Virus record (IMG/VR): IMGVR_UViG_3300047550_003005
Location: 1-54,387 of that record
Source of the DNA: a virus
Lineage: Duplodnaviria; Caudoviricetes
Direction: 5' to 3' (one strand)
DNA: 54,387 bases
The notes under the pieces are model-generated. The model was given only the letters and a program-made list of their open reading frames with translations. It made no database searches and was not told the DNA's origin. Shown in pieces: positions 13,701 through 39,700 of the stretch (the stretch's first letter is position 1; every line of letters begins with the position of its first letter). Position numbers and translations under genes: made by a program.

Positions 13701-16129
13701 CATGGGAGCGTTTAGAGGCATCAAATCATGACCCCGAAATTTATGCGGCTGCTGCTTTTCCAGCTAAATTTTTTGAATGGACAATGGCTTATATGGAGGA
13801 TAAAAATCCAGAAGATATTGATTATCGTGAAATATTACTTCATTCGCAGCCCCATTGGAATGAAAATGCAATAAATGATTGGCTTGAAACTCAAGCTTAC
13901 AATAAAGCGTCTGATTTTGGCGCCATAAGCTCAACAGACGATTGGAATAATCTTCCTGAAAATGAAAAAAATAAATTCACAAAGGACGCAGAACAAAGAC
14001 TTAATTATCTAAAAACTACACTAGACTTCAAAAATAGGAGCGAAAGAAGTGCGCTTTTAGACCCGGATAAAAATTTCTTCAGCACCCATTGGGCTGTGCC
14101 AAATGTAATTGGCCACATTCGCATGCATGACAGGGATGGTGAGGATACGCTGCACGTTGAAGAATTGCAGAGTGATTGGGGGCAGGCCAAGCGTAATGGT
14201 GAGGATGTTCCTGAGCATCCGTTGATCAACAACACAAACACCTGGACCGATCTTTTGCTGAAGCGCGTTTTGCGTGAGGCGGCTCGTCGTGGATATAAGC
14301 GCATTGCTTGGACACCAGGGCAGGAGCAGGCGGAAAGGTACGACCTGAGCCAGCAAATTCATCAATTAAATTATGATCCAGAAGATAAAGTGCTTTCCTA
14401 TTATCATAAGGATCGCGGATGGGATGATCTTCCATATCGCGTTAATCCTGATGAAATACAAAAATATGTTGGGAAAGAGATTGCTAAAAATCTGCTTTCA
14501 CAACCACCAAGCCCATTGAATGGAAGCCATTCCCTAGAAATAAACACGCAAGTCGGCGGCGAAGGCATGAGGGCCTATTACGACAAAATCGTTCCCGCGC
14601 GCATGACGGAAATAACAAAAAAGCTTGGCGCCCCCGTTAAGGTAGAGCCGTACAAAATAAATACCCGAGATGGCGAAAAAACATTACATTCAATTGTGGT
14701 GACGCCGGAGCTAAAATCTGCGGTGTTGAAAGGAATGCCAGTGTACAAAGATGGCGGCAGAATTGGCTACGCTGATGGCGGCATGCCGGGCGATGATCCC
14801 ACGGTGCAGCGGGCGCTGGACATTACGCGGCAGGCGCAACCTGAGCAGTCTCCCATTCCTGGGGCCATGCAGGTGGCTCAGACGGTGGCAGCTCCAGGCC
14901 GCAGGCGCTTTGAGATCGCCCCGGCGCGTGTAGCGCCGATGACAATTGATCAGAAGGACCGCGATCTTCCAGAGGAAGGCAGCGTCACCATCAAACGCCT
15001 CACCGATGCCTTTAAGAAGGCGATTGATAACCACCTGTCACTGCCGCCTGCGCAGCAGATCGCTAATGCCCGGCAGGCTGAAAACAATGTGGCGCAATAT
15101 GTAGGGCGCGGGAAAACCGGCAAGATCAATTCCGTTCTGACCGCCAACAAGAAGCTGATGAAGGCGCAGACGGCTGGGGAAGATGACACCCCACTGATGC
15201 TGCCTGATGGCCGTACACTTGAGATGACCGGGCTGGCGTTGATGCCAGATTACCGGGAAGGCCAGTTTAAGATGTGCGGCAACTCTGATGTCTGCCGTGA
15301 TTCTTGTCTGGGTAAAGAATCAGGACAGTATCGGTATGATCCGACTGAAACCCAAGCCCAGATGCCGATGACGCAAGAAGAATTGGCTGCTGCTGGTGGC
15401 AAGCCCCGCATGGCTGCTTTTCGCCGCACTCAGGCGATGATGCGTGATCCTGAAAGCTTTGCCGTCTATCTGCATGAATTGATTGATGGTGCGAAGATCA
15501 TGGCGGAAAAGCGCGGCGCGCATCTTGGGGTGCGCCTCAATGTGCTTTCTGATTTGTCGCCAAAGATCATGGAGCCGATTATCAAGGCCCATCCAGAAGT
15601 TTCTTTCTATGACTACACCAAGATGAATTATGACCCGGTGGCGCCAAACCACCATTATACCTATTCATCCACGGGGTTGTCGCAGCCGGATCGTGGGGTT
15701 GAAAACCCCTACTCAAACTGGCGCAAGATGCGGGATCGTTTGGATCAAGGGCATAATGTCGCGATGGCATTTGCTCATGGGAAAAGTGATGCCTTCCCAG
15801 AGTATTTGCATGATGAAGAAACTGGGAAGAAGTATCGTGTTGTTTCTGGTGATGAGCATGACTTCCGCCCCTTGGACATGGTGCCAGAGGGGGAAGACGG
15901 CGTGATCATTGCGCTGAAGAACATGGCTGCCAGCAATTCCGAATACAAATATGAGAATGCCGCGCGCAATTCTCACGGTTTTTTTGTTCACCATGAGCCC
16001 GATTTTGAGCGCACCCCCGAAGGGACTTTTTCCCGAAATGAAAATGGGAATCGCATTTCCCGCAATAAAGTTTATACTGTTCGTACCCAACCTATGAAGC
16101 GTGGCGCCGTGCGCCAGCAGGAGAATTGA
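10787..16129 (+). CDS. Large polyvalent virion/cargo protein: ART-PolyVal-like ADP-ribosyltransferase + two unknown domains + GP88-like domain
   Basis: YHGT...FD...GTGEG..YGHGLYF...NYVVF (ART); HVEELQSDW domain; Cx5Cx3C...RLNVLSD...FYDYTK (GP88-like); domains separated by [YR]ADGG-type linkers. Confidence 0.8.
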   Translation: MNHDPRKAIRQAMMIARREVTAPNKASIGGQRHMLAYITPYEAELLMRRGGSGRLTEYGVPAFDDGNGNGPGGGPGNDSNTDTAMSDPNTQTATSGNEGTGAGPTGAGAGGIGETGPDETDANLSGPVAAPVPTAPTATVPFGTPPFGQAPSALGLGLIGGLAGLGFGVPGLGTAAAGIGAAIDANNLNEQLGMMGLEQNIDAQLAAVNAMTMGAFGRGAAEQFGQTLGFDALAEAPMSAFSPPQDLPGPPADTSNPPPYYVDVKAPKQPVMQADEEAQRDLLAARNPMQQPLMYADGGAATGGRMDPRMLPGIHVRVPHDRVGRADGGPVQQPQDEDVRIDDPIIGYHGTPHEFERFDPSKIGTGEGEQMYGHGLYFGEQENTAKYYKDRISTEAGKARLLDARGNEIALSNPANAEFKKFLKTYSGGFRWGDVNHHVEALKRKSATLDDDINSIDEMLRTHNWAGIEDTQKYWQNELEKKIQQKPTILEFTNALEKAQRIEPIGHMYEVAIHARPEEFMDWDKPLSQQNQRVRDFFKQRGFDKDFTTPRGYTQIGGDVYIDAAVRASGSKSGFALPADRKKLSEDMLAAGIPGIKYLDAGSRDAGQGTRNYVVFHPKHLEIKRRYADGGEITPPRDLGADPTVQQALRLSSRVTDKRTPQLQDAADLIAAGQMGPEEYHALVGQYKPVQPYTNVPPMASEADLFRGLSEDKHGKVGAEKNIPEGHPVGLRLDIPAYDRHGVWAPTIHDGHGDKAKAIAHAPFAHVSDPVFSVSENKALNVARGTAKSPFAKINGFWKPTSPEDAQAMAQEYLYHPEWRQVGMDPERHSFFYDRETRQPIVSADEALQVGPLVLAKNPKYGKVTDYKYAIGGGVDDDPTVQQALSYTRKVTPMGFYSHAADVAANLPQQKGTPQQMLSMLTARGVKPDEINNSGAQDTFGNQKTVAKQDLAAHFQQNMPDIQEQKRIPKPSWERLEASNHDPEIYAAAAFPAKFFEWTMAYMEDKNPEDIDYREILLHSQPHWNENAINDWLETQAYNKASDFGAISSTDDWNNLPENEKNKFTKDAEQRLNYLKTTLDFKNRSERSALLDPDKNFFSTHWAVPNVIGHIRMHDRDGEDTLHVEELQSDWGQAKRNGEDVPEHPLINNTNTWTDLLLKRVLREAARRGYKRIAWTPGQEQAERYDLSQQIHQLNYDPEDKVLSYYHKDRGWDDLPYRVNPDEIQKYVGKEIAKNLLSQPPSPLNGSHSLEINTQVGGEGMRAYYDKIVPARMTEITKKLGAPVKVEPYKINTRDGEKTLHSIVVTPELKSAVLKGMPVYKDGGRIGYADGGMPGDDPTVQRALDITRQAQPEQSPIPGAMQVAQTVAAPGRRRFEIAPARVAPMTIDQKDRDLPEEGSVTIKRLTDAFKKAIDNHLSLPPAQQIANARQAENNVAQYVGRGKTGKINSVLTANKKLMKAQTAGEDDTPLMLPDGRTLEMTGLALMPDYREGQFKMCGNSDVCRDSCLGKESGQYRYDPTETQAQMPMTQEELAAAGGKPRMAAFRRTQAMMRDPESFAVYLHELIDGAKIMAEKRGAHLGVRLNVLSDLSPKIMEPIIKAHPEVSFYDYTKMNYDPVAPNHHYTYSSTGLSQPDRGVENPYSNWRKMRDRLDQGHNVAMAFAHGKSDAFPEYLHDEETGKKYRVVSGDEHDFRPLDMVPEGEDGVIIALKNMAASNSEYKYENAARNSHGFFVHHEPDFERTPEGTFSRNENGNRISRNKVYTVRTQPMKRGAVRQQEN
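12709..14817 (+). repeat. Three dispersed 24-bp repeats encoding DPTVQ[Q/R]AL
   Basis: TGATCCCACGGTGCAGCrrGCGCT at 12709-12732, 13417-13440, 14794-14817. Confidence 0.9.
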
Positions 16130-16130
16130 G

Positions 16131-16391
16131 ATGAAGAAGCCGCCGCCGATCAATCAGCTTCACCCTGAAGATCACATTCAGCAGTTTCACAATGCCCATA
16201 TGTTTGAAGATAATGGGGATCACCCCACCGCATTGGGGTCTGTGCTGCGTCATGGCCATTTGCTGGCTTCTGGCGGCACGGTGACATCCCCTGTTGTAGA
16301 TCGGGCTTTGAAGAAGACCGCACCAGACCGGCCTATGGTTGCCTTGGCCGACCTCTTCCAAAGGCAACTGCGGGGACGCCCGCCCTCCTAG
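16131..16391 (+). CDS. Small hypothetical protein with LASGG + PVVDRAL motif
   Basis: AGGAGA RBS; contains the same linker pattern as the polyvalent protein. Confidence 0.65.
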
Positions 16392-16404
16392 GAGATCAAG
16401 TGCT

Positions 16405-18486
16405 ATGAGTGAAACCAGCGCAAAGTCCATCAGGGCAGCACGGGAGGCCAAGGCAAAGCGCTTGGGCTCTGCGGGCGATCCGAAGCAGAAGGTGGATGCT
16501 TCCACCTGGACGCCGCCTGAGATGATGAACACGAATGCCAAGACCGGGCTTCGGCCTGTGTCCCGGCGCGCGTTCAAGCGTGGCGGCAAGGTGGGCATGG
16601 AGGCTGAAGGCTCCTGCGGCCCTACCCGAGCTGACCGCAAGCCGCGCAAGAGCGGCGGCGAGGCCAAGGCTTGGATGGCTGCCAAGATTAACCGTGATGT
16701 GAAGGAAGCCAATGCAGAGCTTGGCAAGCCGCATGTCGGGGGTATGAAGAAGGGTGGCCGGGCGAAGCGTCAGACTGGTGGCATGCTGCCGGAAGGTGCG
16801 CGCCAGGGCATTCAGCGCACTTCTGCCTTGATGGCGCGTGATGCCGCTGATGAGATGGCCCGCCGCCAGCTTCAGCGTGAAAATCCGCCACCGCCGCCCC
16901 CGTCTGAGCGTGAAGCGCCGCTTGATAACCGTTCAACGCGCGAATTGATGGACCGCATGCAGGACGGCATGAAGAAGGGTGGCCGCGCCAAGAAGCAGAT
17001 GGGTGGCATATCCGGTGATCCGCGCCAGGGCGCCGCTGCGATGATGCAGAAGGCCGCTGCCATGGGTAACGTGCCTGCTGACCGCATGGCCTTCAGCCGC
17101 CTTCAGAAAGGCCGCGCTGCCACGATGGCGGGGCTGAAGAAGGGCGGTAAGGTCAGCCACCAGGAGTGGGAGCATTCCAAGGCTGATTTGAAGCAGGACA
17201 AGAAGCTGGCCAAAAAGCATGGCATGAGCATGGAGCAGTGGGAGGAATCCGCTCTTGATGCGAAGCATGACAAGCAGCAATCCACCGAAGGACTGAAGAA
17301 GGGTGGCCGGATTGCGAAGCGGGGCGGCGGCGAGCTTTCTGTAACAACGCCATCCTCTTCTGGTCTGTCTGCATCGCGCCCCCGGTACACGATTGCGCCT
17401 CGTGTCCCTGGCCCTCGCGCTGCCATGGACCCGCGCGTTTTGGCTGGTGAAGTCCTTGTTTTGGGCATGCAGCCATCTGCGGCCAATGCTGGCGAACAAG
17501 AGGCATTGCGGGACTATCTGCGCACCGCGACTTTGCCTGATTACAGTGAACAGGCTGCCGCTGCGCCGCGTTTAAGCCGTGGTTCTGAGCCTTTTTATGC
17601 TGAGGATGCGGCAGGCGGGCAGTATTACAATCCCAGCCCACGGGCTTCATACGCTGAAGAAATGGCAGCGGCGGCTCCTGCGCCTCGCCCGCGCCCGGCA
17701 CCTCGGGCTGCTGCACCTCAAGCTGATGCTGCCAGCAGGCAGAGCGAGCTTGAGAAAATTGCGATGGGCGCTGTTTTGAGCGACATGATGAAGGGCGGCT
17801 ATGAACAGCCTGAGCGCGGGTTCTTTGACCGCCTTGGCCTGCGCCGCACCTATGAGACTGGTGAAGGCCGCCCCAGCACCGGCAGCCTGTCTGGTGATCT
17901 TCGCGAATTGGGTCGCACCCTTGGCTTCAAGAAGGGCGGCAAGGTGATGGAAGGCAACTACACGGGCGGCACCCGCCCGACTGGTGGCCGGATTGCGAAG
18001 AAGGGCGGTGGTCGCGCCAAGGGCAAGACCAACATCATCATCTCGATCAATCCTGGCGCTGGCGCTGCTGGTGGCCCAGGCATGATGCCTCCGGGCAACT
18101 TGCCGCCGGGTGCTGGTGCGCGTCCTGGCGCTGGTGGTTTGCCGGTGCCGGTTGCTGGCCCTCCTGGGGCCGGTGCGCCGCCTCCGATGCCGATGCCTGT
18201 TCCTGTGCCTATGCCGATGGGCGCAGGCGCTGGCGGGCCTCCTATGCCGCCTCCTGGCGCGATGCCGCGCAAGGCCGGTGGCCGTGCGTATCGTTCCTAT
18301 AAGGACATGGATGCGGGCGCTGGTAGTGGTCTGGGGCGGTTGGAGAAGACCGAAATCCAAGAACACAAGCGCGGTGAGCGTAAGGCCGGTGGCCGCACCT
18401 ACCGTTCTTACAAAGATATGGATGCCGGTGCTGGCAGCGGGCTTGGGCGGTTAGAGAAAACCGAAATCCAAGCGCGCAAGAGGTGA
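16405..18486 (+). CDS. Low-complexity basic virion-associated protein with repeated x-K-K-G-G motifs
   Basis: AGGAG RBS; more than 12 motifs (FKRGG, MKKGG, LKKGG, RKAGG...); Pro/Gly tract; duplicated C-terminal 31-mer. Confidence 0.8.
18268..18471 (+). repeat. Duplicated 93-bp unit ([31 protein letters not shown] x2)
   Basis: 18268-18360 and 18379-18471; 30/31 aa identical, many synonymous changes. Confidence 0.9.
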
Positions 18487-28050: not shown

Positions 28051-29628
28051 ATGCCATTCAGTTCAGAGGCTGGCAAAGCCAGCATAGCATGGGCGTTGTC
28101 ACATATCCCGGTTCCTAAAACAGCATTGGATATTGGCTGCGGCCAAGGCACATACGCCAAGATGTTTCCAAAGCTCCAGTGGACTGGAGTGGAAATTTGG
28201 GAACCATACGTTGAAAAATATGGTCTAAAAGACCTCTACCCAAGCCTTCAAATTGCCGATGCCCGTGAATGGGATACGGATGAGCATTTTGATGTGTGCT
28301 TCCTTGGCGATGTGCTGGAGCATATGCCAGCGGATCATGCCATGGAATTGGTGGAAAGGGCCAAGCAGTGGGCTGACACGGTGGTGATCAGCATCCCGCT
28401 GGGGCATTATCCGCAGGGCGAGTATGACGGAAACCCATATGAAGCCCATGTGGTGGACCATTGGACTGACGCTCAGGTAAGGCAGGCATTTGGTGAGCCC
28501 ACTTGGTCTGACATTGACCGCGAAATTGGTGTCTATGTCTATTCCAAGCATGAGATTCGGTTGCGAATTGCCGTCTATGCCATCAGCAAGAACGAAAAGC
28601 AGTTTGTTGAGCGCTTTTGCAAATCAGCCGAAGGTGCCGATTGTATCCTGATTGCAGATACCGGCAGTGATGATGGCACGGTTGAGGAGGCCCAGCGCTG
28701 CGGGGCTGCCGTGACCAGCATTTACATTAATCCATGGCGGTTTGATCATGCCAGGAATGCTGCCCTGGCCGTGATCCCGCGCGATATTGATGTCTGCATC
28801 AGCCTTGATCTTGATGAAATGCTTGAACCCGGCTGGCGGGAAGAGATTGAGCGCGTTTGGACACCCAGAACCACCCGTTTGCGCTATTATTTCGATTGGG
28901 GTGCTGGCATCCGGTTCAAATATGAGAAGATTCATGCCCGGAAAGGGTACTTCTGGCATCATCCGTGCCACGAATACCCGGTTGCTGATGGTCGGATCGT
29001 GGAAAACTGGGCCAATTCAGAGATGCTGCTGGTCAGCCATCATCCAGACCCCACCAAAAGCCGTGGCCAGTACCTGGATTTGTTGGCTTTGTCGGTTAAG
29101 GAAGACCCGCACTGCCCACGCAATGCCTTCTATTACGCCCGCGAGCTGACCTTCAATTACCGCTGGCATGATGCCATCAAAGAATTGCACAGGTATCTGG
29201 ATTTGCCGCATGCCAACTGGCCGAATGAGCGGTGCTATGCCTACCGGCTGCTTGGGAAAGCCCATGGCGAGCTTGGTGATCAGGTTCAATCCGAAAAATT
29301 CTACCAACTTGCCGCCAGTGAAGCGCCAGGAACCCGTGAGCCATGGTGTGAGCTTGCGATGCTCTATTACCGGCAGCACCGCTGGCCAGACTGCTATGCG
29401 GCCTCCATGCGGGCTTTAGAAATCAAAGACAAGCAACTGGTCTATACCTGTGATCCCGCTGTCTGGGGCCATTGGGCGCATGATCTGGCGTCAATTTCGG
29501 CCTGGAATATGGGCATGAAAGAGGTTGCCTTGGAGCAGGGTAAATTGGCTTTAATGCATTCGCCTGAAGATGCTAGGCTGCAAGCCAATTTGGCTTTCAT
29601 GGCAGGAATTCAGCAAGAGGCCGCCTGA
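28051..29628 (+). CDS. SAM methyltransferase + GT2 glycosyltransferase + TPR fusion
   Basis: LDIGCGQG and GDVLEH (class I MTase); SKNE, DTGSDDGT, FDHARNAAL, DLDE, HE (GT2); Tyr/Ala helical TPR C-terminus. Confidence 0.85.
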   Translation: MPFSSEAGKASIAWALSHIPVPKTALDIGCGQGTYAKMFPKLQWTGVEIWEPYVEKYGLKDLYPSLQIADAREWDTDEHFDVCFLGDVLEHMPADHAMELVERAKQWADTVVISIPLGHYPQGEYDGNPYEAHVVDHWTDAQVRQAFGEPTWSDIDREIGVYVYSKHEIRLRIAVYAISKNEKQFVERFCKSAEGADCILIADTGSDDGTVEEAQRCGAAVTSIYINPWRFDHARNAALAVIPRDIDVCISLDLDEMLEPGWREEIERVWTPRTTRLRYYFDWGAGIRFKYEKIHARKGYFWHHPCHEYPVADGRIVENWANSEMLLVSHHPDPTKSRGQYLDLLALSVKEDPHCPRNAFYYARELTFNYRWHDAIKELHRYLDLPHANWPNERCYAYRLLGKAHGELGDQVQSEKFYQLAASEAPGTREPWCELAMLYYRQHRWPDCYAASMRALEIKDKQLVYTCDPAVWGHWAHDLASISAWNMGMKEVALEQGKLALMHSPEDARLQANLAFMAGIQQEAA

Positions 29629-30659: not shown

Positions 30660-31379
30660 ATGACCACAGGTTTGACGTATAGCCAGTATGTGAGCGAGAT
30701 CGCCACCCTTGCGGTTGTGCCTTCTGACGACCCCAATTTCGTGGAAATCCTGCCGCAGATGATCACCTATGCGGAAAACAGGATTTACCGCGATTTGGAC
30801 CTGCTGGAGACTGTCACCGCGATAAGCTCCTACACAACCGCCCTAAATGGCCGCACGGTCACTTTCCCGATTGCTGACTTCATCACGGTGCAGGAGGTGA
30901 ATGTCATCACCCCTGCTGGCACCACCATCCCTGACAATGGCACCAGGACGGCCCTGCTGCCCGTGACCAAGGAATGGATGAATTACAACTACGTCAGCAG
31001 CGCATCGGCGGCGGTGCCGTACTATTTCGCGATGTTCAACCAGAACACGATCATCCTTGGCCCCTGGGCGGATGACACCTACACCATCGAAATTGTGGGG
31101 ACGTTCCGCCCGGATTCGCTGTCTGCGTCCAACACTTCTACCTTTGTGTCGCTCTATCTGCCTGATCTGATGATCATGGCTTCCATGATTTATATCAGCG
31201 CCTTCCAGCGCAACTTCATCTCGGCGGCAGCCAATGACCCGCAGATGCCGGTCAACTATGAGACTCAGTATCAGACTTTGCTGAAGGGGGCGATGGTTGA
31301 AGAGGCGCGTAAGAAGTTCCAATCGGCTGGCTGGACTTCCATGTCGCCTGCTCCTGTGGCTTCGCCGACCAGAGGATAA
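30660..31379 (+). CDS. Tail/head-completion adaptor protein
   Basis: AENRIYRDL, P.Y.AM, GP.AD..Y.IE, N..T..S.Y.PDL motifs. Confidence 0.65.
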   Translation: MTTGLTYSQYVSEIATLAVVPSDDPNFVEILPQMITYAENRIYRDLDLLETVTAISSYTTALNGRTVTFPIADFITVQEVNVITPAGTTIPDNGTRTALLPVTKEWMNYNYVSSASAAVPYYFAMFNQNTIILGPWADDTYTIEIVGTFRPDSLSASNTSTFVSLYLPDLMIMASMIYISAFQRNFISAAANDPQMPVNYETQYQTLLKGAMVEEARKKFQSAGWTSMSPAPVASPTRG

Positions 31380-31382
31380 GGT

Positions 31383-33497
31383 ATGCCTCACGCCACGCTC
31401 AAGCTGATCCCAGGGGTTGATCAAAACCGGACACCGGCTTTGAACGAGGCTGCTTTGTCTGAAAGCCAGCTCATTCGGTTTGTGCAGGATCGTCAGGGTT
31501 TGGGATTGCCTCAAAAGCTTGGCGGTTGGACACGGTATTACCCAAATGCTTTGGCTGCCACGCCTAGGGCTATGTTGGCTTGGCAGGACAACAATGGTCA
31601 GCAGTATCTAGCGGTTGGGTGCGAAGCCCCTGCATCTATTGCTGTGCCACCGCCCGGCGCCCCTATTTATGTCATCAATAATGGCACGGCCAGAAACCTT
31701 GTGCCTCAAGTTGATCGGCATGATGTCGCGGTAGATGTCACGACAACAACGACATCAAACAGCGTCATAATTGAAGACACCGCCAGTAATATGACTGACT
31801 ATAATGCGGTTTTTGTTTTGACGCACATTTCGGTTGGGGGCGTCATTATTTTTGGTTTTTACAGAACCTATCAGGTCAGCGCCAATACTTATGAGATTTT
31901 TTTGACTGATGCTTTAGGCAATCCATTGATACCTACCACGGCTGTCGCAAATGGTGGTTCTGTTGCCGAATTTGATGTGACCAGCGGTTCTTCAGTGGTG
32001 ACTGTGACCTTAAATGATCATGGGTATAATGTCGGGGATACTTATCCAATTTTGGTGTCAACCACTCTTGGTGGTGTGACTTTATTTGGCAATTACACCG
32101 TTACAAGCATTGTCAGTGCTAATGAATTTACCATCAATGCACCGCAGCAAGCCACCTCCACCACAAGCGCGTTCATAAATAGCGGCGATGCTGCTTATGA
32201 TTATTATTATGGGTTTGGCTCTTTAACTGCTGGCAGCGGCTATGGTGTTGGTGGTTATGGCACAGGCGGTTATGGTTCTGGCGTTTCTATTGTTCCTGCC
32301 GGTGGTGATGAATTGGTTGCCACGGATTGGACGCTTGATAATTGGGGGGACACCTTAATTGCCTGCCCAAATGGCTTAACCTTTGGCCCTGCTGTTTCAA
32401 ACCCCCTTGGTGGGCCTATCTACCAATGGTCGCCGCAGGTCAATTCGCCAACACTAGATGTCATCCCTGAAGCTCCTGTCGCTAATGCAGGCATTTTTGT
32501 CGCGATGCCGCAGCGGCAGATTATTGCATGGGGATCAACCTTCAATGGCGTCCAAGACCCACTGTTGATCCGTTGGTGCGATATTGAAAATTATCAGCAG
32601 TGGATTGCTCTGCCGACCAATCAGGCTGGCTCATATCGCATCCCCAAGGGGTCGCAGATTGTTGGATGTATCCAGGGGCCACAACAGGGGCTTGTTTGGA
32701 CCGATCTGGCTCTCTGGGCCATGCAGTATGTTGGCGCCCCTTATGTGTACTCATTTAATGAAATTGGCACTGGCTGCGGCTTGATTGCGCCCAAGGCTGC
32801 TGCATCTTTGAATGGCGTCATTTATTGGATGTCCCAGAGCCAGTTCTTTATGTATGCCAATGGCGGTGTGCAGGGTATTCAATGCCCGATCTGGGATGTG
32901 ATCTTCCAAGACCTTGATACAACCAACCTTGATAAGATCAGGATTGCGGTGAATTCACGATTTAATGAGGTGGCTTGGTTTTATCCCACCATGAGCAATG
33001 GCGGTGAAATCAACGCATATGTGAAGTACAATGTTGGCTTGAACCAGTGGGATTTTGGGACGCTCTCGCGCACGGCATGGATCAACCAGTCAGTGCTTGG
33101 GCCGCCCATTGGCGCGACACCGGAAGGCTTGATCTATCAGCATGAGACTTCTCAAAATGCTGATGGCTTCCCTATGACATCCTACTTTCAGACGGGGTAT
33201 TTCACGCTCTCAGACGGCGATGTTTTGACTTACATTGATCAGTTCTGGCCGGATGCTAAGTGGGGTTATTATGAGGGTGTGCAGGACGCCAACCTGCTTT
33301 TGACGTTTTATGTGCTGAATTACCCCGGCGACACGCCAAAGGTTTATGGGCCTTATGATGTCGTCAAAACCACGCAGTATATTGTGCCGCGCTTCCGTGG
33401 TCGCTTAGTGTCGATCAGGATTGAGAGCAACGACATTGATTCGTTCTGGCGCATGGGTGCAATGCGTTACCGCTTCTCGCCTGATGGGAAATTCTGA
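31383..33497 (+). CDS. Tail nozzle/stabilisation protein (P22 gp10-like)
   Basis: QKLGGW, WTLDNWG, DPLLIRW.D, NQAGS, EVAWFYP, GTLSRTAW, RFRGR motifs. Confidence 0.75.
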   Translation: MPHATLKLIPGVDQNRTPALNEAALSESQLIRFVQDRQGLGLPQKLGGWTRYYPNALAATPRAMLAWQDNNGQQYLAVGCEAPASIAVPPPGAPIYVINNGTARNLVPQVDRHDVAVDVTTTTTSNSVIIEDTASNMTDYNAVFVLTHISVGGVIIFGFYRTYQVSANTYEIFLTDALGNPLIPTTAVANGGSVAEFDVTSGSSVVTVTLNDHGYNVGDTYPILVSTTLGGVTLFGNYTVTSIVSANEFTINAPQQATSTTSAFINSGDAAYDYYYGFGSLTAGSGYGVGGYGTGGYGSGVSIVPAGGDELVATDWTLDNWGDTLIACPNGLTFGPAVSNPLGGPIYQWSPQVNSPTLDVIPEAPVANAGIFVAMPQRQIIAWGSTFNGVQDPLLIRWCDIENYQQWIALPTNQAGSYRIPKGSQIVGCIQGPQQGLVWTDLALWAMQYVGAPYVYSFNEIGTGCGLIAPKAAASLNGVIYWMSQSQFFMYANGGVQGIQCPIWDVIFQDLDTTNLDKIRIAVNSRFNEVAWFYPTMSNGGEINAYVKYNVGLNQWDFGTLSRTAWINQSVLGPPIGATPEGLIYQHETSQNADGFPMTSYFQTGYFTLSDGDVLTYIDQFWPDAKWGYYEGVQDANLLLTFYVLNYPGDTPKVYGPYDVVKTTQYIVPRFRGRLVSIRIESNDIDSFWRMGAMRYRFSPDGKF

Positions 33498-33853
33498 TGG
33501 CAAGTTTAGACGATATCGCAACGATCCAGAAGAACGGTGTCATTGCTGTTAATACGCTGAACCAGACACTTCAGCGCATTTATGGGTCCAATACTTCAGC
33601 GACAGCCTCTGCTGACACCTTAGTGCTTACGGGGCCTGGACGGTTGATCAATGTTTCGGTGACGGTGGCTGGCTCTACTGCCGGGGCCATTCATAATTCT
33701 TCCACCGTGGCGGGGGTTTCAGCGAGCAATATGCTTGCGACAATTGATTCGACTGTTGGGGTTTATCCAATGAACCTGTTGTTTACCAATGGTTTGGTGA
33801 TCGTTGTTGGTACAGGGCAAGAGATGAACGTCACCTATTCGGTGGGGGCATAA
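33497..33853 (+). CDS. Hypothetical structural protein
   Basis: TGATG overlap; beta-rich. Confidence 0.7.
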   Translation: MASLDDIATIQKNGVIAVNTLNQTLQRIYGSNTSATASADTLVLTGPGRLINVSVTVAGSTAGAIHNSSTVAGVSASNMLATIDSTVGVYPMNLLFTNGLVIVVGTGQEMNVTYSVGA

Positions 33854-33854
33854 G

Positions 33855-34412
33855 ATGCCATTGAAGCGCGGCAAATCGCAGAAGACGATTTCTTCTAATA
33901 TCAGGGAGATGATCCATGCCGGGCATCCGCGTGATCAGGCCATTGCTGCCGCGCTGAATATTGCCAGGAAGAAGGCTGCCGAAGGCGGCATGCGCCTTGG
34001 TGTGGACAACCCACAGCCTGAGAAAATCCATGTGGGGCCGATCCACAGCGCGGTGGCCGGGCGTACTGATCACCTGCCGGTGCATGTGGCGTCTGGCTCT
34101 TATGTGATCCCGGCAGACATCATTTCGGCCATGGGCGAAGGCAATTCCATGGCTGGCTTTAAGGTTTCAGACCGTATTTTTCGCGATCCAGAGGGGGATC
34201 GTGAGCCTCACAAGAACCCTGCTTTTGCTGACGTAGAAACGGTTCCTGTGGTTGTAGCGGGTGGGGAATATATCATCAGCCCGCAAGATGTAATTCACCT
34301 GGGTGGTGGCTCGATGGAGGACGGGCATCGGATGCTGGATGAATTCGTGAAACAATACCGGCAGAAGACCATTAAGACCCTCCAGGCTTTGCCGGGACCA
34401 AAGAAGGATTGA
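33855..34412 (+). CDS. Conserved protein with AAEGG and two GE/S[Y]V-type modules
   Basis: MPLKRGKSQKTISSNIRE...QAIAAAL; GRTDHLP...SGSYVIPAD..S..G.G; AGGEYIISP.DV..LG.G. Confidence 0.75.
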   Translation: MPLKRGKSQKTISSNIREMIHAGHPRDQAIAAALNIARKKAAEGGMRLGVDNPQPEKIHVGPIHSAVAGRTDHLPVHVASGSYVIPADIISAMGEGNSMAGFKVSDRIFRDPEGDREPHKNPAFADVETVPVVVAGGEYIISPQDVIHLGGGSMEDGHRMLDEFVKQYRQKTIKTLQALPGPKKD

Positions 34413-34418
34413 GGACTG

Positions 34419-34907
34419 ATGTCCGAAGATATTAGGGTCCGAATTGCCACGCCTGATGATGTCCATGATCTCATGGAATTGGCGATGCTTGCTTGTGATG
34501 AAAACGGGTTTGTGAACCCAAACCCGGTGAAGCTTTTGAACGAGATTTACCCGGCTTTAACCCTGCAATCTGGTATTGTGGGGGTTATTGGGAAGGCGGG
34601 TGAAAAGCCCGAAGCGGCCATTCTGCTTCGGGTCGGGAATGTCTGGTACTCAGATAATCCCGTCCTTGAGGAGCGGGCGATCTTCGTCCATCCTGATTTC
34701 CGTAGCGCGAAGGGTGGCAGGGCTGCCAAGCTCTGCAAGTTCGCCAAGGAAACGTCTGATAAATTGGGTTTGCCCCTGATGATTGGTGTGTTAAGTAATG
34801 ACCGTACTGCGGCCAAAATCCGCATGTATGAACGTCAATTTGGCTCGCCTTCGGGGGTGTACTTCCTGTATCAAGCCCAAACAGGGGGCTGGAAAGAGGC
34901 ATCATGA
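34419..34907 (+). CDS. GNAT-fold protein (internal virion/assembly protein)
   Basis: VRIATPDDV, IFVHPDFRSAKGG; directly upstream of ejection genes. Confidence 0.7.
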   Translation: MSEDIRVRIATPDDVHDLMELAMLACDENGFVNPNPVKLLNEIYPALTLQSGIVGVIGKAGEKPEAAILLRVGNVWYSDNPVLEERAIFVHPDFRSAKGGRAAKLCKFAKETSDKLGLPLMIGVLSNDRTAAKIRMYERQFGSPSGVYFLYQAQTGGWKEAS

Positions 34908-37900
34908 GCGGTGGTGGTAAGAGCAGCACAAGTACCTCCTCGGTATCCATCCCGCCAGAGGTTTTGGCCCGGTATAATGCGGTAAATGCTCGCGCCGAGC
35001 AGGTCGCGCAGCAACCTTTCACGCCGTATGGCGGGCAGTTTGTCGCTCCTCTTACCCAAACGCAGCAGGCTGGCATTTCCAATGTCAGCCAAGCCGCTGG
35101 CGCCGCGCAGCCCTATTATCAGGCTGCCGGTACGGCGTTGCTTGGCGGTGCAGCGCAGGCCCAGCCTTATTATCAGGCGGCTACCCAAGACATCTATGGC
35201 GGTCAGGCGGCTGCCGCGCCGTTGCAGGCTGCGGCGGCCCAGAACATCGCTGGCGCCCAGGCTGCTGCCCAGCCTTATCAGGGCATGGCCACCGGATTTG
35301 GCCTTGCTGGTGCGCGGCAGATCGCGCCGGGCGGCTTGAATGTCGGCGCCTATATGTCGCCCTATACCGAGGCTGTGGCGCAGCCCACCTATCAGGCTTT
35401 GCGGCAGCAGCAGGAGCAAGAGCGCCAGCGGATGCTTGGTGAGCAAATCCGTGGCGGTGCCTTTGGTGGTGATCGCGGGCGGATTGCCCAGGCTAATTTG
35501 GCCCAGCAGCAAAACCTTGCCACCGCCCAGGCGTTGGGGAACATTTACCAGCAAGGCTATGGGCAGGCGCTTGGCGCGGCCCAGCAGCAGCAGGGCGTGG
35601 CTTTGCAGGCCGAGCAGGCCAACCGGCAGGCGCAGCAGCAGGCCGCCCAACAGTTCCTCGGCATTGGCCAGCAGGCATTTGGCCAGGGGGCGCAGACTGC
35701 CCAGCAGCAGGCGGCATTGGGCCAGCAGCTATTTGGCCAGGGCGCCCAGGCTGCCCAGGCGCAGCAGGCGCTTGGGCAGGGGCTGTATGGCATTGGGGCT
35801 GGCGTCAGCCAGGGGCTGGCCGGGCTTGGCACTGGCGCGCAGCAGGCAGCCTTGCAGGGCGGTCAGGCGCAGCTTGCGGCTGGTACGGTGGAGCAGCAGA
35901 CCCAGCAGGCGCAGAATCAGGCGCTGTACAACCAGTTCTTGCAGCAGCAGGGCTACCCGTTCCAAGTGGCGCAGTTCCTGGCGAACATCGCCATGGGTAC
36001 GGGCGCGCTGTCTGGATCGACCACGACCACCACGCAGCCTTCATCGTTCTTCTCGGATGAGCGATTGAAGCATGATATTGAGCCCATCGGTAAGACCTTT
36101 GATGGTCAGGACATCGTGCGGTTCAAATACAAGGGCGAGCCCGGCACCCGGATCGGCCTTGTGGCGCAGGATGTTGAGAAGAAGCATCCAGAGGCCGTGG
36201 GGCTGGCTGGCGGCTACAAGACGGTAGATTATGACGCCGCGACCGATGAGGCCGCCGCACGGGCTCCTAAAGCCTATGGTGGCGGTCTGAATCCGTGGGA
36301 TGGCAATTCCATGGGTGGTGGCGTGTTCCGTGAGGATGCTGGTCAGGGGTTTGCTGCTGGCGGTGCGCCGGGTGGTGATGATGTCCTGGCGCAGATCAAT
36401 GCGCTGGTGAATGCCCATCAGGGCATGTTCCCGTATGGCAAGGCGGGCCTGTACGGCGGCGGCATGGGGAAGGCTGGGCCTTATGGTTCCACGCTGATGC
36501 AGGCGCCTAGCCGTAATTTACTGACAGCACCAGCACCTCGGCAGCAGGCTCCTTATGATGTGCGGCAGGCCATGCGCGATGTTGGTGATATCGCAGGCAT
36601 GCCTGAGCGTATCCAGAAGGGTTATGCCGGTGCCAAGGCAGGTTTGGTTGGTTCTCCTGGACAGACCACCACGACGACCAGCCCTTCCGGCCAAACCACC
36701 ACACAGACAACGCCATCCTCTGGCGGATTGGCTGGCGAGGGCGGCAGATTGCAATGGCAGGGAAGCTGGGGGCAGCAGTTTGTTGAGGGCGCCCGCGAAG
36801 CTGCGCAGGATGTTGCTGCTGCTTTCGGTTATGCTCATGGCGGCACTATTCGTCCAGGCTTTTCTGTTGGTGGTTTGCCGTATAGCCAAGCAACTGACGA
36901 ATATGTCCCCGAAGATATCAGCAAACCTATTACTCCTGGTAAACTTGAAGCCCCAAAACCGGGTGGGCAACAATCTAATGATGGCAAACAGCTTTTGGAT
37001 TTTGCAAAAACTGCTGCGGCAATTTATGGCGCTGGCGCGGCCACCGGAGGCGCAATTCGGCGCCATTATGAAGATGGCGGATTTGCCGACATAGGCAATT
37101 ATGGTGGTTTTGGTGGTGATAATTATGAGGGTGGTTTAAGCCCGCAAAAATTTGAAACGCCAGATTCTCGTCCCTCTTCAATTCTTGATCAAAAGGATGG
37201 CAAAAACGACAAAAACAATACCTCATCCGCACAAATTAATCCGGGTGTGCTGTCGCCAAGCGCGGGTGGTCATTATGATCCCAGTAAAGATGATGCGCAA
37301 ACTGCGGCATCATTGGCAGCTATAGCTGCTGCGGTTATGCTTTCTGATCGCGGGTTGAAAGAAAACATTGAGCCTATCGGCAAACTTTTTGATGGACAAA
37401 ATGTGTATCGCTACAATTTCAAGGGTGACGACAAAAAGCAAATTGGCTTGATGGCGCAGGAGGTTGAGAAGAAATACCCTGATGCTGTTGGGCTTGCGCC
37501 GCGCAAGGGGTATCAGCAGGGCGGTGGCCCGAATGTTCCTGAAGCGTATCAATCCATTGTTGAAGAGGTGGCGCGCGAAAGGGGCGTTCCGCCGCATATT
37601 CTTGGCGCTGTTCTGCGTCATGAATCTGGCTTCAATCCTGAAGCGCGTGGGCAGGCTGGAGAAATCGGCCTGGGGCAGATTTTGCCCAGCACAGCGCGCA
37701 GGCCAGGGTTTGGCCTTAATCCTGCGACCGAAGAAGAATTGCGCGATCCTCGGCGCAATATTGATTTCTCTGCCTCTTATATTGCGGCCCGCAATCCGAA
37801 TGTTGATTGGTCCAATCCAGTCGCGGCGGCGCGGGCTTTGGCTACCAATTACAATGCCGGTGGTGATCCCAATTATGCTGAAAAGGTCATCCGCTATTTC

Positions 37901-39700
37901 CCTGGTGTGACTGAAGAGCAGATCGCTGAAGTGCGCGCTCGCGCTCCTCAAGGTGCTGCTGCATCTGCCGATGATTTGACGCGGCTTGCTGGGCCGCCGC
38001 GCCAGCAGCGCGGTCTTGTGAGGATGGAACGCCCGGCGCCGGATTGGATGCAACGCAATCAATCCTGGTTTGTCCCGGCATTGGCCGGTCTTGCAGGCAT
38101 GGCGTCTTCTCCAAGCAGGTATCTAGGCTCTGCTGTCTTGCAGGGGCTTGGGACGGCTGCTGAAACCTATGGCGGCATGCAGGCGCGCTTTGAAGAGCAA
38201 CAGCGCGCCCGTGAGCAGACTGGCATCCAGGCGCAGCAAGCAGCCACCGCAGAGCGGCGTGTGGATGTTGAAGAGTCCTTGCGGAACCTTCAGCTCTTGC
38301 AGCGCTTTGAAGCCATGTATGAACGGCGCCTTGGTCCCGACAATCGTGTCTTCTACCTTGACAAGGCAACTGGCCAGCAGATCAGCCTTGAGGAATACAA
38401 CAGGCGGTATCGGCAAATGCTTGGCGCGCTTACTGGCGGCGGGTCAGGTGTTGGCGCTGTTGCTGCCAGTCGGGCTCCTGGCGCCTCTGAAGCCCCTGCT
38501 GCTGGGCGTCCTGGTGAAGTGCCTGTCCCTGGTGCCGCACCTGCTGAACAGCCCGCAACGCCGCCAGCAGAGGGGGCTACCGAAGGTAGGCGTGAAGCTC
38601 CTGCTGCCCCTACAACGCAGCCTCAGACGCCGCCGCCTGCTCCTGGGCAACGTGCTGAACCGGCATCACCATATGCAAGTTCAACAGCGCAGCGCAGGCT
38701 TGAGGGGTTTGATTATTCTGTGCTTCGGAATGAAGACAATCCTCAATGGATTGATGAGCAAATCCGCGCGAAGCGCGCCAGGATTGCCGCGCTTCGGACT
38801 GAAGGAACGCAGCAGGCGCTTAATGAAATCCCTGGCTTGGAAAGCGAAGTTAAGGATTACCAGCAGCGCGCAGATAGGATCATTGGTGGTGAAATTGTTC
38901 CTCGCAACAGGGACAACACGCTGAATGAGCAGTTCCGTCAGCTTGCTGTTGAACGTGCGCAGGATGCCAAGTTTGTTGAGAGCTTGGCTGAATCTCGCAC
39001 CAATCAATACAACCGAGCCAATTCTTTTGTTTCGACGGAATATCCTGTTGCGCGCGGGCTGATAGATCAATTGACGCAGATTTATCAGAATGTGCAAACA
39101 AACCGTGGTTCTGAGGCGCTCGCGCAATTGGTCGGGCTTGGTAGCCAACTGCCTTGGCTTGGTCCTGTGATCCAAGAGCGGTTTGGTGATTTGCAGGCTG
39201 CTGTTGATGCGGGCAATAAAACTGCAATTGAGCAGGCATTCTCAAAGATTGCTGAGTCTGGCGCGCAGCGCGCTCCTGGTACGGCATTAAGAGAAGCGCT
39301 TTTGACAGTGGCGCAGCCTGGGATGTCGCCAGACGCTCGGTACATTGTCATCACCAACACGCTCGCCAATTTGGAGCGTGAGAATAAGCAATACCGCGAT
39401 TGGCTTGATGCCGGTATGCCGGAACCGGCGGCATTTAATGCTCGCTGGACGGCTTCAGGTGATAACGATCTTTCTGTCTTCCAGCGGCAGGCTGTTTCTC
39501 GGACCCCGCGTTTCGCTGGCATGACGGAAGGCGCACGACCGCTGATCCGTGGTGGTGAGCCTGCTGCTGCACCTGCTGCGCCTAGGCGGGTAGCGACAGA
39601 AGCAGACATCAACGCAACCTTGGCGGCAAACCCAGGAATGACACGCGAACAGGTAATTCAGCGCGCACGTTCCATGGGATATGAAGTGGGAGGCGAATAA
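34904..39700 (+). CDS. DNA ejection/pilot protein with two Peptidase_S74 (intramolecular chaperone) domains and a lytic transglycosylase domain
   Basis: GGGK+ST-rich N-terminus, Q/A/G tract; SDERLK..GLVAQDVEK..P.AV..VDY and SDRGLK..GLMAQEVEK.YPDAV; HESGFNP...GLGQI (SLT). Confidence 0.85.
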   Translation: MSGGGKSSTSTSSVSIPPEVLARYNAVNARAEQVAQQPFTPYGGQFVAPLTQTQQAGISNVSQAAGAAQPYYQAAGTALLGGAAQAQPYYQAATQDIYGGQAAAAPLQAAAAQNIAGAQAAAQPYQGMATGFGLAGARQIAPGGLNVGAYMSPYTEAVAQPTYQALRQQQEQERQRMLGEQIRGGAFGGDRGRIAQANLAQQQNLATAQALGNIYQQGYGQALGAAQQQQGVALQAEQANRQAQQQAAQQFLGIGQQAFGQGAQTAQQQAALGQQLFGQGAQAAQAQQALGQGLYGIGAGVSQGLAGLGTGAQQAALQGGQAQLAAGTVEQQTQQAQNQALYNQFLQQQGYPFQVAQFLANIAMGTGALSGSTTTTTQPSSFFSDERLKHDIEPIGKTFDGQDIVRFKYKGEPGTRIGLVAQDVEKKHPEAVGLAGGYKTVDYDAATDEAAARAPKAYGGGLNPWDGNSMGGGVFREDAGQGFAAGGAPGGDDVLAQINALVNAHQGMFPYGKAGLYGGGMGKAGPYGSTLMQAPSRNLLTAPAPRQQAPYDVRQAMRDVGDIAGMPERIQKGYAGAKAGLVGSPGQTTTTTSPSGQTTTQTTPSSGGLAGEGGRLQWQGSWGQQFVEGAREAAQDVAAAFGYAHGGTIRPGFSVGGLPYSQATDEYVPEDISKPITPGKLEAPKPGGQQSNDGKQLLDFAKTAAAIYGAGAATGGAIRRHYEDGGFADIGNYGGFGGDNYEGGLSPQKFETPDSRPSSILDQKDGKNDKNNTSSAQINPGVLSPSAGGHYDPSKDDAQTAASLAAIAAAVMLSDRGLKENIEPIGKLFDGQNVYRYNFKGDDKKQIGLMAQEVEKKYPDAVGLAPRKGYQQGGGPNVPEAYQSIVEEVARERGVPPHILGAVLRHESGFNPEARGQAGEIGLGQILPSTARRPGFGLNPATEEELRDPRRNIDFSASYIAARNPNVDWSNPVAAARALATNYNAGGDPNYAEKVIRYFPGVTEEQIAEVRARAPQGAAASADDLTRLAGPPRQQRGLVRMERPAPDWMQRNQSWFVPALAGLAGMASSPSRYLGSAVLQGLGTAAETYGGMQARFEEQQRAREQTGIQAQQAATAERRVDVEESLRNLQLLQRFEAMYERRLGPDNRVFYLDKATGQQISLEEYNRRYRQMLGALTGGGSGVGAVAASRAPGASEAPAAGRPGEVPVPGAAPAEQPATPPAEGATEGRREAPAAPTTQPQTPPPAPGQRAEPASPYASSTAQRRLEGFDYSVLRNEDNPQWIDEQIRAKRARIAALRTEGTQQALNEIPGLESEVKDYQQRADRIIGGEIVPRNRDNTLNEQFRQLAVERAQDAKFVESLAESRTNQYNRANSFVSTEYPVARGLIDQLTQIYQNVQTNRGSEALAQLVGLGSQLPWLGPVIQERFGDLQAAVDAGNKTAIEQAFSKIAESGAQRAPGTALREALLTVAQPGMSPDARYIVITNTLANLERENKQYRDWLDAGMPEPAAFNARWTASGDNDLSVFQRQAVSRTPRFAGMTEGARPLIRGGEPAAAPAAPRRVATEADINATLAANPGMTREQVIQRARSMGYEVGGE

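Follow-up and report, generated by a model that had tools for sequence, protein, structure and literature searches.

Several described phage systems come close to the gene analyzed here. In lambda, cleavage within the Gly-rich C-terminal part of the 853-amino-acid (aa) ruler protein gpH yields gpH* and gpHC, and the gpH residues from about 690 to 817 are not resolved by cryo-electron microscopy (cryo-EM) (PMC12617516). T5 pb2 is likewise cut, after R1127, into pb2* and pb2C, the latter reported to be muralytic (PMC10038345). Families such as ART-PolyVal and InPase have been described as parts of the head-packaged, injected polyvalent proteins (Iyer et al. 2017, PMC5512222). In the podophage SU10, the genes past the nozzle and the needle encode five ejection proteins (PMC9509320), and T7 gp14, gp6.7 and gp7.3 are small tail- or core-associated proteins that move during ejection (PMC11784390). 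Here we describe a 185-aa protein encoded at 33855–34412 (+) of a 54,387-nucleotide (nt) stretch of DNA from a virus of the Caudoviricetes (IMG/VR record IMGVR_UViG_3300047550_003005, positions 1 to 54,387; hereafter the window), the C-terminal domain of which is built of two related units of an element, GG...GE[FY]V, that also occurs in lambda gpH.

A first-pass annotation of this DNA, made from its letters alone, had noticed two related units after an AAEGG motif and had proposed that they form a protease or reader, akin to a tape-measure module and freed to act in trans on GG-tagged cargo. The duplication and the kinship held up, the latter at moderate significance, and no support emerged for a protease or a trans-acting reader. 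We consider, with a probability of roughly 0.45, that the protein is the minimal form of a domain by which tail-delivered proteins pair and dock at their C-terminus.

An internally duplicated C-terminal domain

The open reading frame (ORF) starts with ATG and encodes 185 aa plus a stop codon, exactly as first annotated. The family alignment divides the protein into four parts: (i) an N-terminal helical hairpin (residues 1–43, 33855–33983 (+)), modelled by AlphaFold2 (AF2) as helices 9–21 and 26–43; (ii) a variable linker followed by unit 1 (residues 57–109, 34023–34181 (+)), which comprises a strand, a turn (G81-S-Y-V), a second strand and two helices; (iii) an inter-unit linker (residues 110–125, 34182–34229 (+)), PYG/Gly-rich and 14–344 aa long in relatives; and (iv) unit 2 (residues 126–179, 34230–34391 (+)), with a strand, a turn (G137-E-Y-I), a strand, a helix and a long C-terminal helix, closed by the conserved extreme C-terminus LPGPKKD (residues 179–185, 34389–34409 (+)). 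The motif AAEGG (residues 41–45, 33975–33989 (+)) stands at the joint that precedes the variable linker, and a KAxGG motif, usually found before unit 2 in the family, has been lost in the clade of this protein. The hairpin assigns the protein to phrog_2423, a 52-position profile of small phage proteins that matches residues 1–43 with an expectation value (E) of 2.7e-14 and also 29 of 29 family members. The same hairpin exists as a free-standing protein of 43–70 aa in cultured phages such as Ralstonia RSB1 and Burkholderia BcepF1 and BcepNY3 (BFVD matches).

The two units of the first-pass annotation map letter for letter to residues 69–101 and 130–157. Comparison of the unit 1 and unit 2 profiles with hhalign gave P=2.8e-6 (88%, 35 columns) for an alignment of 29 sequences and P=7.9e-13 (97.8%, 47 columns) for a more diverse alignment of 72. 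The internal duplication is real and beyond chance. A hidden Markov model (HMM) of the module found no further copy when run on the 704 remaining ORFs in the six frames of the window.

The AF2 model of the whole protein was middling, with a predicted local distance difference test (pLDDT) of 77; residues 55–185, modelled with the 72-sequence alignment, form one compact domain at pLDDT 90.8 and a predicted template modelling score (pTM) of 0.83, in which each unit runs from a strand of 7 residues through a turn and a strand of 3 residues into two helices. Searching the PDB with this domain model in Foldseek gave no match at E≤0.001 (best E=1.2, TM score at most 0.27), and no protease was present among the weak matches; no solved counterpart of the modelled fold is thus detectable. 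The whole-protein model matched nothing in the PDB, and its BFVD matches were uncharacterised relatives and small N-terminal-hairpin proteins only. Other candidates were set aside: a sequence profile search of the PDB pointed to ribosomal protein S3 at E=0.16, a chance match; the ESM Atlas returned unnamed viral clusters, the nearest named entry, crAss cargo protein 1 (0.84), lying below the lead threshold and having no Pfam support; and a likeness in pattern and pairing to the SpoVT/AbrB swapped-hairpin barrel, in which two hairpin-helix halves make up one small barrel, was backed neither by Pfam (MazE_antitoxin; no match at E≤1) nor by any AbrB-like chain in Foldseek and is no more than a lead.

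Relatives of the protein are numerous. A word-indexed search confirmed 2763 proteins (90%-identity clusters) at E≤1e-3 among 2920 candidates of 101–324 aa, all of them nameless or 'hypothetical' and encoded on contigs of up to about 60 kb, and 552 of 837 longer candidates (325–2000 aa, clustered in the same way) matched as well, so that the family comprises at least 2763 plus 552 clusters. The hosts of phages carrying the module include Gram-negative, Gram-positive and cyanobacterial bacteria. An exhaustive HMMER search of 50%-cluster representatives with a 38-column profile of both units retrieved 2274 representatives at E≤1e-3, of which 1109 reached at least 1e-10 and 31 at least 1e-30. Among the best 150 of the 2274, two matching stretches were present in 148 and three in one, while the remaining one, the top-ranked P0242 (7221 aa), proved to be a false positive, namely a repetitive adhesin-like protein that sums many weak repeat matches of at most 9 bits each. 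The repeats of P0242 contain a stretch like 'SY.L.P.DI.AMG.G', a curious local likeness to unit 1.

The position of the units was then inspected in 142 of these best 150 representatives, the other eight, which bore earlier identifiers, being omitted. In 141 of the 142 the two units lie at the extreme C-terminus, followed by a tail of median 25 aa and at most 31 aa. The 142 proteins are 108–1500 aa long, their inter-unit linkers span the 14–344 aa given above, and 40 of them start with the hairpin. A Pfam scan of ten larger carriers revealed InPase in two (one also with CHAP) and ART-PolyVal above the cut-off in two and below it in one, and five had no recognisable domain. In three family members, ART-PolyVal or InPase is inserted right past the N-terminal hairpin, just beyond the AAEGG position. 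The larger carriers therefore resemble polyvalent proteins in carrying ART-PolyVal, InPase and CHAP, and a 1780-aa protein of the window is of the same type; unlike them, the 185-aa protein has no Pfam domain at all, hence no pair of unrelated effector-type domains such as its relatives possess, and the passages of PMC5512222 at hand mention neither this C-terminal domain nor the term 'tape measure'. Because much larger proteins consistently end in the same two units, the protein looks like an empty, cargo-less version of a domain that serves as carrier or anchor at the C-terminus, and this anchor-like placement makes it doubtful that the module was 'freed to act in trans'. The domain keeps its C-terminal place while the enzyme domains of these proteins are swapped, and may thus be a general address or anchor for injected cargo, which would be useful for understanding and engineering virion-delivered content in laboratory phages. 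With a confident model and an occurrence in thousands of phages, the 131-residue domain is a tractable object for structure, pairing, cleavage and docking assays.

Gene order was compared in the best 80 of 589 confirmed IMG/VR relatives, a sample skewed to close ones, with loci that had room for the gene in question as denominators. The nozzle gene lies upstream in 74/74 loci and the 118-aa gene in 56/74; downstream, a GNAT gene is present in 71/71, directly adjoining in 69, and the ejection protein in 50/50. Unit 1 is the best-conserved stretch of the gene block, with a median identity of 87.5% (50 loci) as compared with 58.7% for the nozzle, 52.8% for the adaptor and 59.1% for GNAT (69 loci, near-identical ones excluded). 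Within the family, the polar residues E138 and D162 are invariant and H158, R70, T71, D72, D88 and N97 near-invariant; beyond the two-unit family, in single-unit tape measures and other podophage proteins, most of these are replaced. What all units have in common, namely a glycine, an [ES]-aromatic-aliphatic strand and a helix with [ILM]GxG, is a structural signature.

Likeness to an element of tape measure proteins

The GenBank record of lambda gpH contains FATGG at residues 735–739, GEFVF at 754–758 and YATGG at 783–787, in agreement with the first-pass annotation. This stretch (about 735–790, within gpHC) resembles the units described here in its succession of [FY]AxGG, strand, GE[FY]V strand, IGxG helix and second [FY]AxGG; the difference is that lambda has one unit in an 853-aa ruler, while the window protein has no ruler but a pair of units. 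The stretch belongs to the part of gpH that lacks a structure and adjoins the cleavage of gpH, for which, according to passages of PMC12617516, neither the site nor the protease has been known since the 1970s; for the protease, the first-pass annotation had said the same. The element, which we treat as an uncurated class common to tape measures and podophage internal proteins, can be described as a strand, a G-[ES]-[FY]-[VI] strand and a helix that contains [ILM]GxG, as a rule with [FYK]AxGG on either side, and the window protein conforms to this description. A search of open-access text found no publication describing the element as a domain.

Both units align ungapped to the elements of lambda, Rinkes, GB2A, F116, CRP-212 and MinM2. 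Searching with each unit by tblastn (E≤10) gave repeated matches in annotated tape measures and in podophage proteins. For Mycobacterium, 52 of 52 among the matches listed were annotated as tape measure (296 such records), all from a single mycobacteriophage lineage and hence not independent; annotated tape measures were also hit in 2/4 Bacteroides and 1/4 Caulobacter records, and the podophage matches came from F116-like phages, Roseobacter CRP phages and MinM2-like cyanophages. The first-pass annotation had ascribed the fuller form 'D.[IV]P..L...GE[FY]V' to siphophage tape measures; it was seen in one genuine siphophage tape measure, that of Rinkes, and in several podophage proteins.

An independent profile, seeded with lambda gpH only and built from six tape-measure-type proteins reached from it, which include the P2-like Mannheimia tail protein T and the unannotated Pseudomonas MR15 gp04 (1345 aa), was compared with the profiles of both units. 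It matched unit 2 with P=2.2e-6 (89%, 39 columns) and unit 1 with P=1e-3, unit 2 being the unit closer to the gpH element. In the opposite direction, HMMs of the family, run on a test set of 6846 sequences, retrieved proteins of MinM2 (6e-12), GB2A (2.9e-8), F116 gp58 (1.2e-5) and CRP-212 gp38 (3.3e-3). A profile of seven outside sequences that found the window protein at 5.9e-14 among the 705 window ORFs was set aside as circular, because six of the seven had been chosen for their likeness to the query.

GB2A bridges this family to true tape-measure families, since its 581-aa protein matches three tape-measure PHROGs via the module alone, at 8e-8 to 1.6e-6. In this Caulobacter phage (L085:3480-5222), the module occupies the C-terminal residues 477–534 of a protein named 'tail length tape measure protein', a label that probably derives from the module alone; recurrent mis-annotation of proteins as 'tape measure' merely for carrying the element would thus be explained. 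The tape measure of Mycobacterium phage Rinkes (L084:114-6092, 1993 aa) has two units about 670 residues apart (around 950–1005 and 1616–1672), each followed by [FY]AxGG. Pseudomonas F116 gp58 opens with the same two-unit tandem but differs in that the units are N-terminal in a 676-aa protein, and Roseobacter CRP-212 gp38 (1204 aa, encoded after the portal gene) bears a single unit close to its C-terminal end; no function is known for either of these proteins.

The kinship does not make the window protein a tape measure, which would be long, largely helical, similar to tape-measure families along its length and encoded between tail chaperones and tail-tip genes in a long-tailed phage. It is 185 aa long, touches tape-measure PHROGs over only 27 residues (E=0.09) and belongs to a phage with an SU10-type podophage tail, and no tape measure was found when the 13 window ORFs of at least 300 aa were all scanned against PHROGs, in keeping with the earlier view of a phage lacking one. 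Nor did it match the NCBIfam model TIGR01541 tape_meas_lam_C at E≤1 (cut-off 104.75 bits), to which lambda gpH aligns with 448.7 bits over residues 472–813, element included; Pfam has no model for the element, its Tape_meas_lam_C spanning gpH 627–701 only. The protein likewise falls outside phrog_11341, the 678-position family of F116 gp58, of which only positions 16–52 were matched (E=0.095), although 27 of 29 family members match it with a best E of 1.9e-6.

As the two units form one domain in the model, tape measures with a single unit would be expected to pair from chain to chain. Lambda gpH 725–800, modelled as two copies together, scored 0.33, against 0.01 for the best control, with contacts agreeing to at least 84% and pLDDT of at least 55; the mark for a homodimer, 0.32, was attained by 21 of 30 solved homodimers and by 0 of 23 single chains. 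The copies are predicted to pair through their GEFV strands; the tightest contacts in this model are 757:757 and 750:750, and F756 lies against G738/G739 of the other copy. The dimer model supports rather than shows pairing in lambda, by a narrow pass and with a low-confidence fold, and says nothing direct about the protein of the window.

Weighing the possible roles

These findings led us to hypothesize that the small protein resides inside the virion and probably exits via the tail. Its domain would be an intramolecular pair of the GG...GE[FY]V element, of which tape measures carry single units near their processed C-terminal end, and the GE[FY]V strands would pack two units together by hairpin pairing, within the chain here and between chains in tape measures. 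Such a pair may tie a small and stable knot into the C-terminus of proteins that have to occupy the tail channel and pass out through it. Inside the particle, this knot would serve to dock or organise the protein together with whatever cargo is fused upstream of it, and it would mark the joint beside which some tape measures are cut. The protein resembles T7 gp14 in position and presumably in size. The likeness to the small T7 proteins is an analogy of role only, as no similarity of sequence or fold was found.

Several results weigh against this hypothesis. No cultured relative with proteomics that would place the protein in virions was found; a literature search on the cultured relatives gave unrelated papers, and the A1002 podophage paper deals with no F116-like phage. 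The lambda dimer, besides concerning another protein, passes marginally (0.33 vs 0.32) and at a pLDDT of about 56. The lambda-seeded HMM ranks the protein first among the 705 window ORFs, yet only at E=0.13; the Rinkes tape measure scores only 0.055 with the family HMMs in the 6846-sequence set, and all matches of family members to tape-measure PHROGs have E≥0.013, so the link to genuine tape measures is no more than moderate. Lastly, the 87.5% identity of unit 1, far above that of its structural neighbours, and the conservation of E138, D162, H158 and R70–D72 would equally fit an enzyme or a hub with several partners, and an enzymatic or multi-partner role is therefore possible.

The GG motif is concentrated in two giant proteins. 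In the 1780-aa polyvalent-type protein (10787–16129 (+)), [FY][AS]xGG occurs 4 times against 0.11 expected from shuffles, and its [FY]AxGG copies at residues 295, 627, 869 and 1328 lie at or between the edges of domain matches, like cassette joints; the 1598-aa ejection-type protein (34904–39700 (+)) has 3 against 0.31 expected. One motif was found in the nozzle and none in the other 43 genes examined, and neither the 768-aa protein nor the adaptor was enriched. Across 45 homologues of the ejection protein of at least 1000 aa, the mean was 2.44 motifs against 0.25 expected, with at least one in 42. The co-occurrence with GG-rich proteins that had been predicted is thus present; yet the unit of lambda, the two of Rinkes and those of the family consensus are themselves bracketed by the motif, and GG co-occurrence therefore cannot single out a trans-acting reader. 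In the T5 record, AEGG directly follows R1127 and precedes a short strand-rich, hairpin-like stretch, so that pb2 represents one mapped case of cutting at x|AxGG, and the motif may mark cleavage joints. The AEGG at this cut holds the position that KAxGG has before unit 2 in the family consensus; unlike the family, however, T5 pb2 gave no match to the module HMMs and has a C-fragment with reported muralytic activity, whereas no cleavage of the podophage family is known.

A broader version of the proposal seems doubtful to us. In it the unit is a universal pairing-and-release joint of proteins that phage tails deliver, two units locking into a fold new to the PDB, between chains in tape measures and, in podophages, within the chain at the C-terminus of ejected and effector-carrying proteins, with cutting at x|AxGG beside the unit as in T5. 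If true, it could account for the presence in lambda of six gpH* chains alongside no more than three ordered gpHC ends, it would predict the gpH cut at or near FATGG, and it would make the window protein a minimal, experimentally handy form of the joint.

It is rather unlikely that each unit is a processing joint in cis, which aids the adjacent cleavage at x|AxGG either unaided or by offering the site to a protease of the host or the phage. Such a joint would free upstream cargo or the C-fragment of a tape measure, and cutting of the protein itself would leave three pieces, the hairpin and the two units. The T5 cut directly before AEGG with a hairpin-like stretch next to it (PMC10038345), the bracketing of units by the motif, the GG motifs that flank inserted effector domains and the four motifs at domain edges in the 1780-aa protein all argue for this; but the T5 site is the single mapped one, in a protein that the module HMMs miss, the window protein has no motif before unit 2, and no cleavage is known for any podophage member.

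We regard it as improbable that the element acts on the envelope after ejection, binding or attacking peptidoglycan or membrane where the C-terminus of a tape measure, or the ejection proteins, first contact the host. The C-fragment of T5 pb2, which starts at this point, has a reported metallopeptidase motif and muralytic activity (PMC10038345), CHAP and SLT domains occur in carriers or their neighbours, and the range of Gram-negative, Gram-positive and cyanobacterial hosts would fit a universal target. Against this, lambda virions are described in passages of PMC12617516 as having no such enzyme and gpH as having no known activity, and the domain matched no cell-wall-binding or hydrolase family or fold.

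The protease or trans-acting reader of the first-pass annotation, which would recognise and process [FY]AxGG-tagged cargo, is very unlikely. What speaks for it is the roughly 10-fold enrichment of the motif in the two giant internal proteins and its presence in 42/45 ejection-protein homologues, the cutting of lambda gpH in a Gly-rich region by an unknown protease (PMC12617516) and of T5 pb2 right before AEGG, the strongly conserved polar residues, and the contact in the lambda dimer model between the FATGG glycines and F756 of the partner copy. However, no peptidase family was matched in Pfam, PHROGs or NCBIfam and no peptidase fold by Foldseek in the PDB, the candidate catalytic residues are mostly lost in single-unit relatives, the domain is always C-terminal in cargo-bearing proteins rather than free, and the flanking of the units by the motif leaves co-occurrence undiscriminating. 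Equally remote is a role as adaptor, by which GNAT, encoded by its own gene, or some other neighbour would be brought into the particle, as a stand-in for covalent effector fusions: GNAT lies downstream in 71/71 loci (with a 6-nt gap in the window), relatives hold enzymes fused in the same protein, and InPase domains adjoin or are fused to NUDIX and GNAT domains (PMC5512222), but the whole block is syntenic in close relatives, so adjacency is of little weight, and no fusion of the domain to GNAT was found. An apparent fusion of this kind at seven loci proved to be an open frame that overlaps in a different reading frame.

The surrounding locus

The window is a whole virus record with a completeness rating of 95%, and every gene is on the + strand; tRNA and tmRNA genes were looked for over 1–54387 and none was found. 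By its tail genes (SU10-type portal and adaptor) the phage is an SU10-like podophage. Its genes run from terminase, SU10-type portal, the 1780-aa protein, head genes and a collagen-like fibre, through the SU10-type adaptor (30660–31379 (+)), the 704-aa protein in nozzle position (31383–33497 (+)), a 118-aa ORF (33497–33853 (+)) that is by position a candidate for needle or plug, the gene described here and a weak GNAT-like ORF (34419–34907 (+)), to the 1598-aa protein, proteins of 768 and 367 aa and then an endolysin. The gene starts 1 nt past the end of the 118-aa ORF and ends 6 nt before the GNAT-like ORF, and so lies, as first noticed, just upstream of GNAT and ejection genes. The GNAT-like acetyltransferase reaches 17.9 bits against Pfam Acetyltransf_1, under the cut-off of 20.7, and matches a PHROG acetyltransferase family at 3.3e-7.

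The 1598-aa protein has a Q/A/G-rich N-terminus and contains both an SLT transglycosylase and two stretches of Peptidase_S74, a self-cleaving chaperone; the 1780-aa protein, encoded directly past the portal, has a GP88 domain and an ART-PolyVal match below threshold. Between it and the head genes, a 715-aa ORF (16339–18486 (+)) had no Pfam or PHROG match. A 525-aa protein (28051–29628 (+)) with methyltransferase, glycosyltransferase and TPR matches is encoded inside the tail block, between the fibre and adaptor genes. At one of the 80 loci compared (L034:5343-6266), the 118-aa gene has a Trp codon in place of its stop, which joins it in one frame with the gene described here, either as a natural fusion or through a sequencing error.

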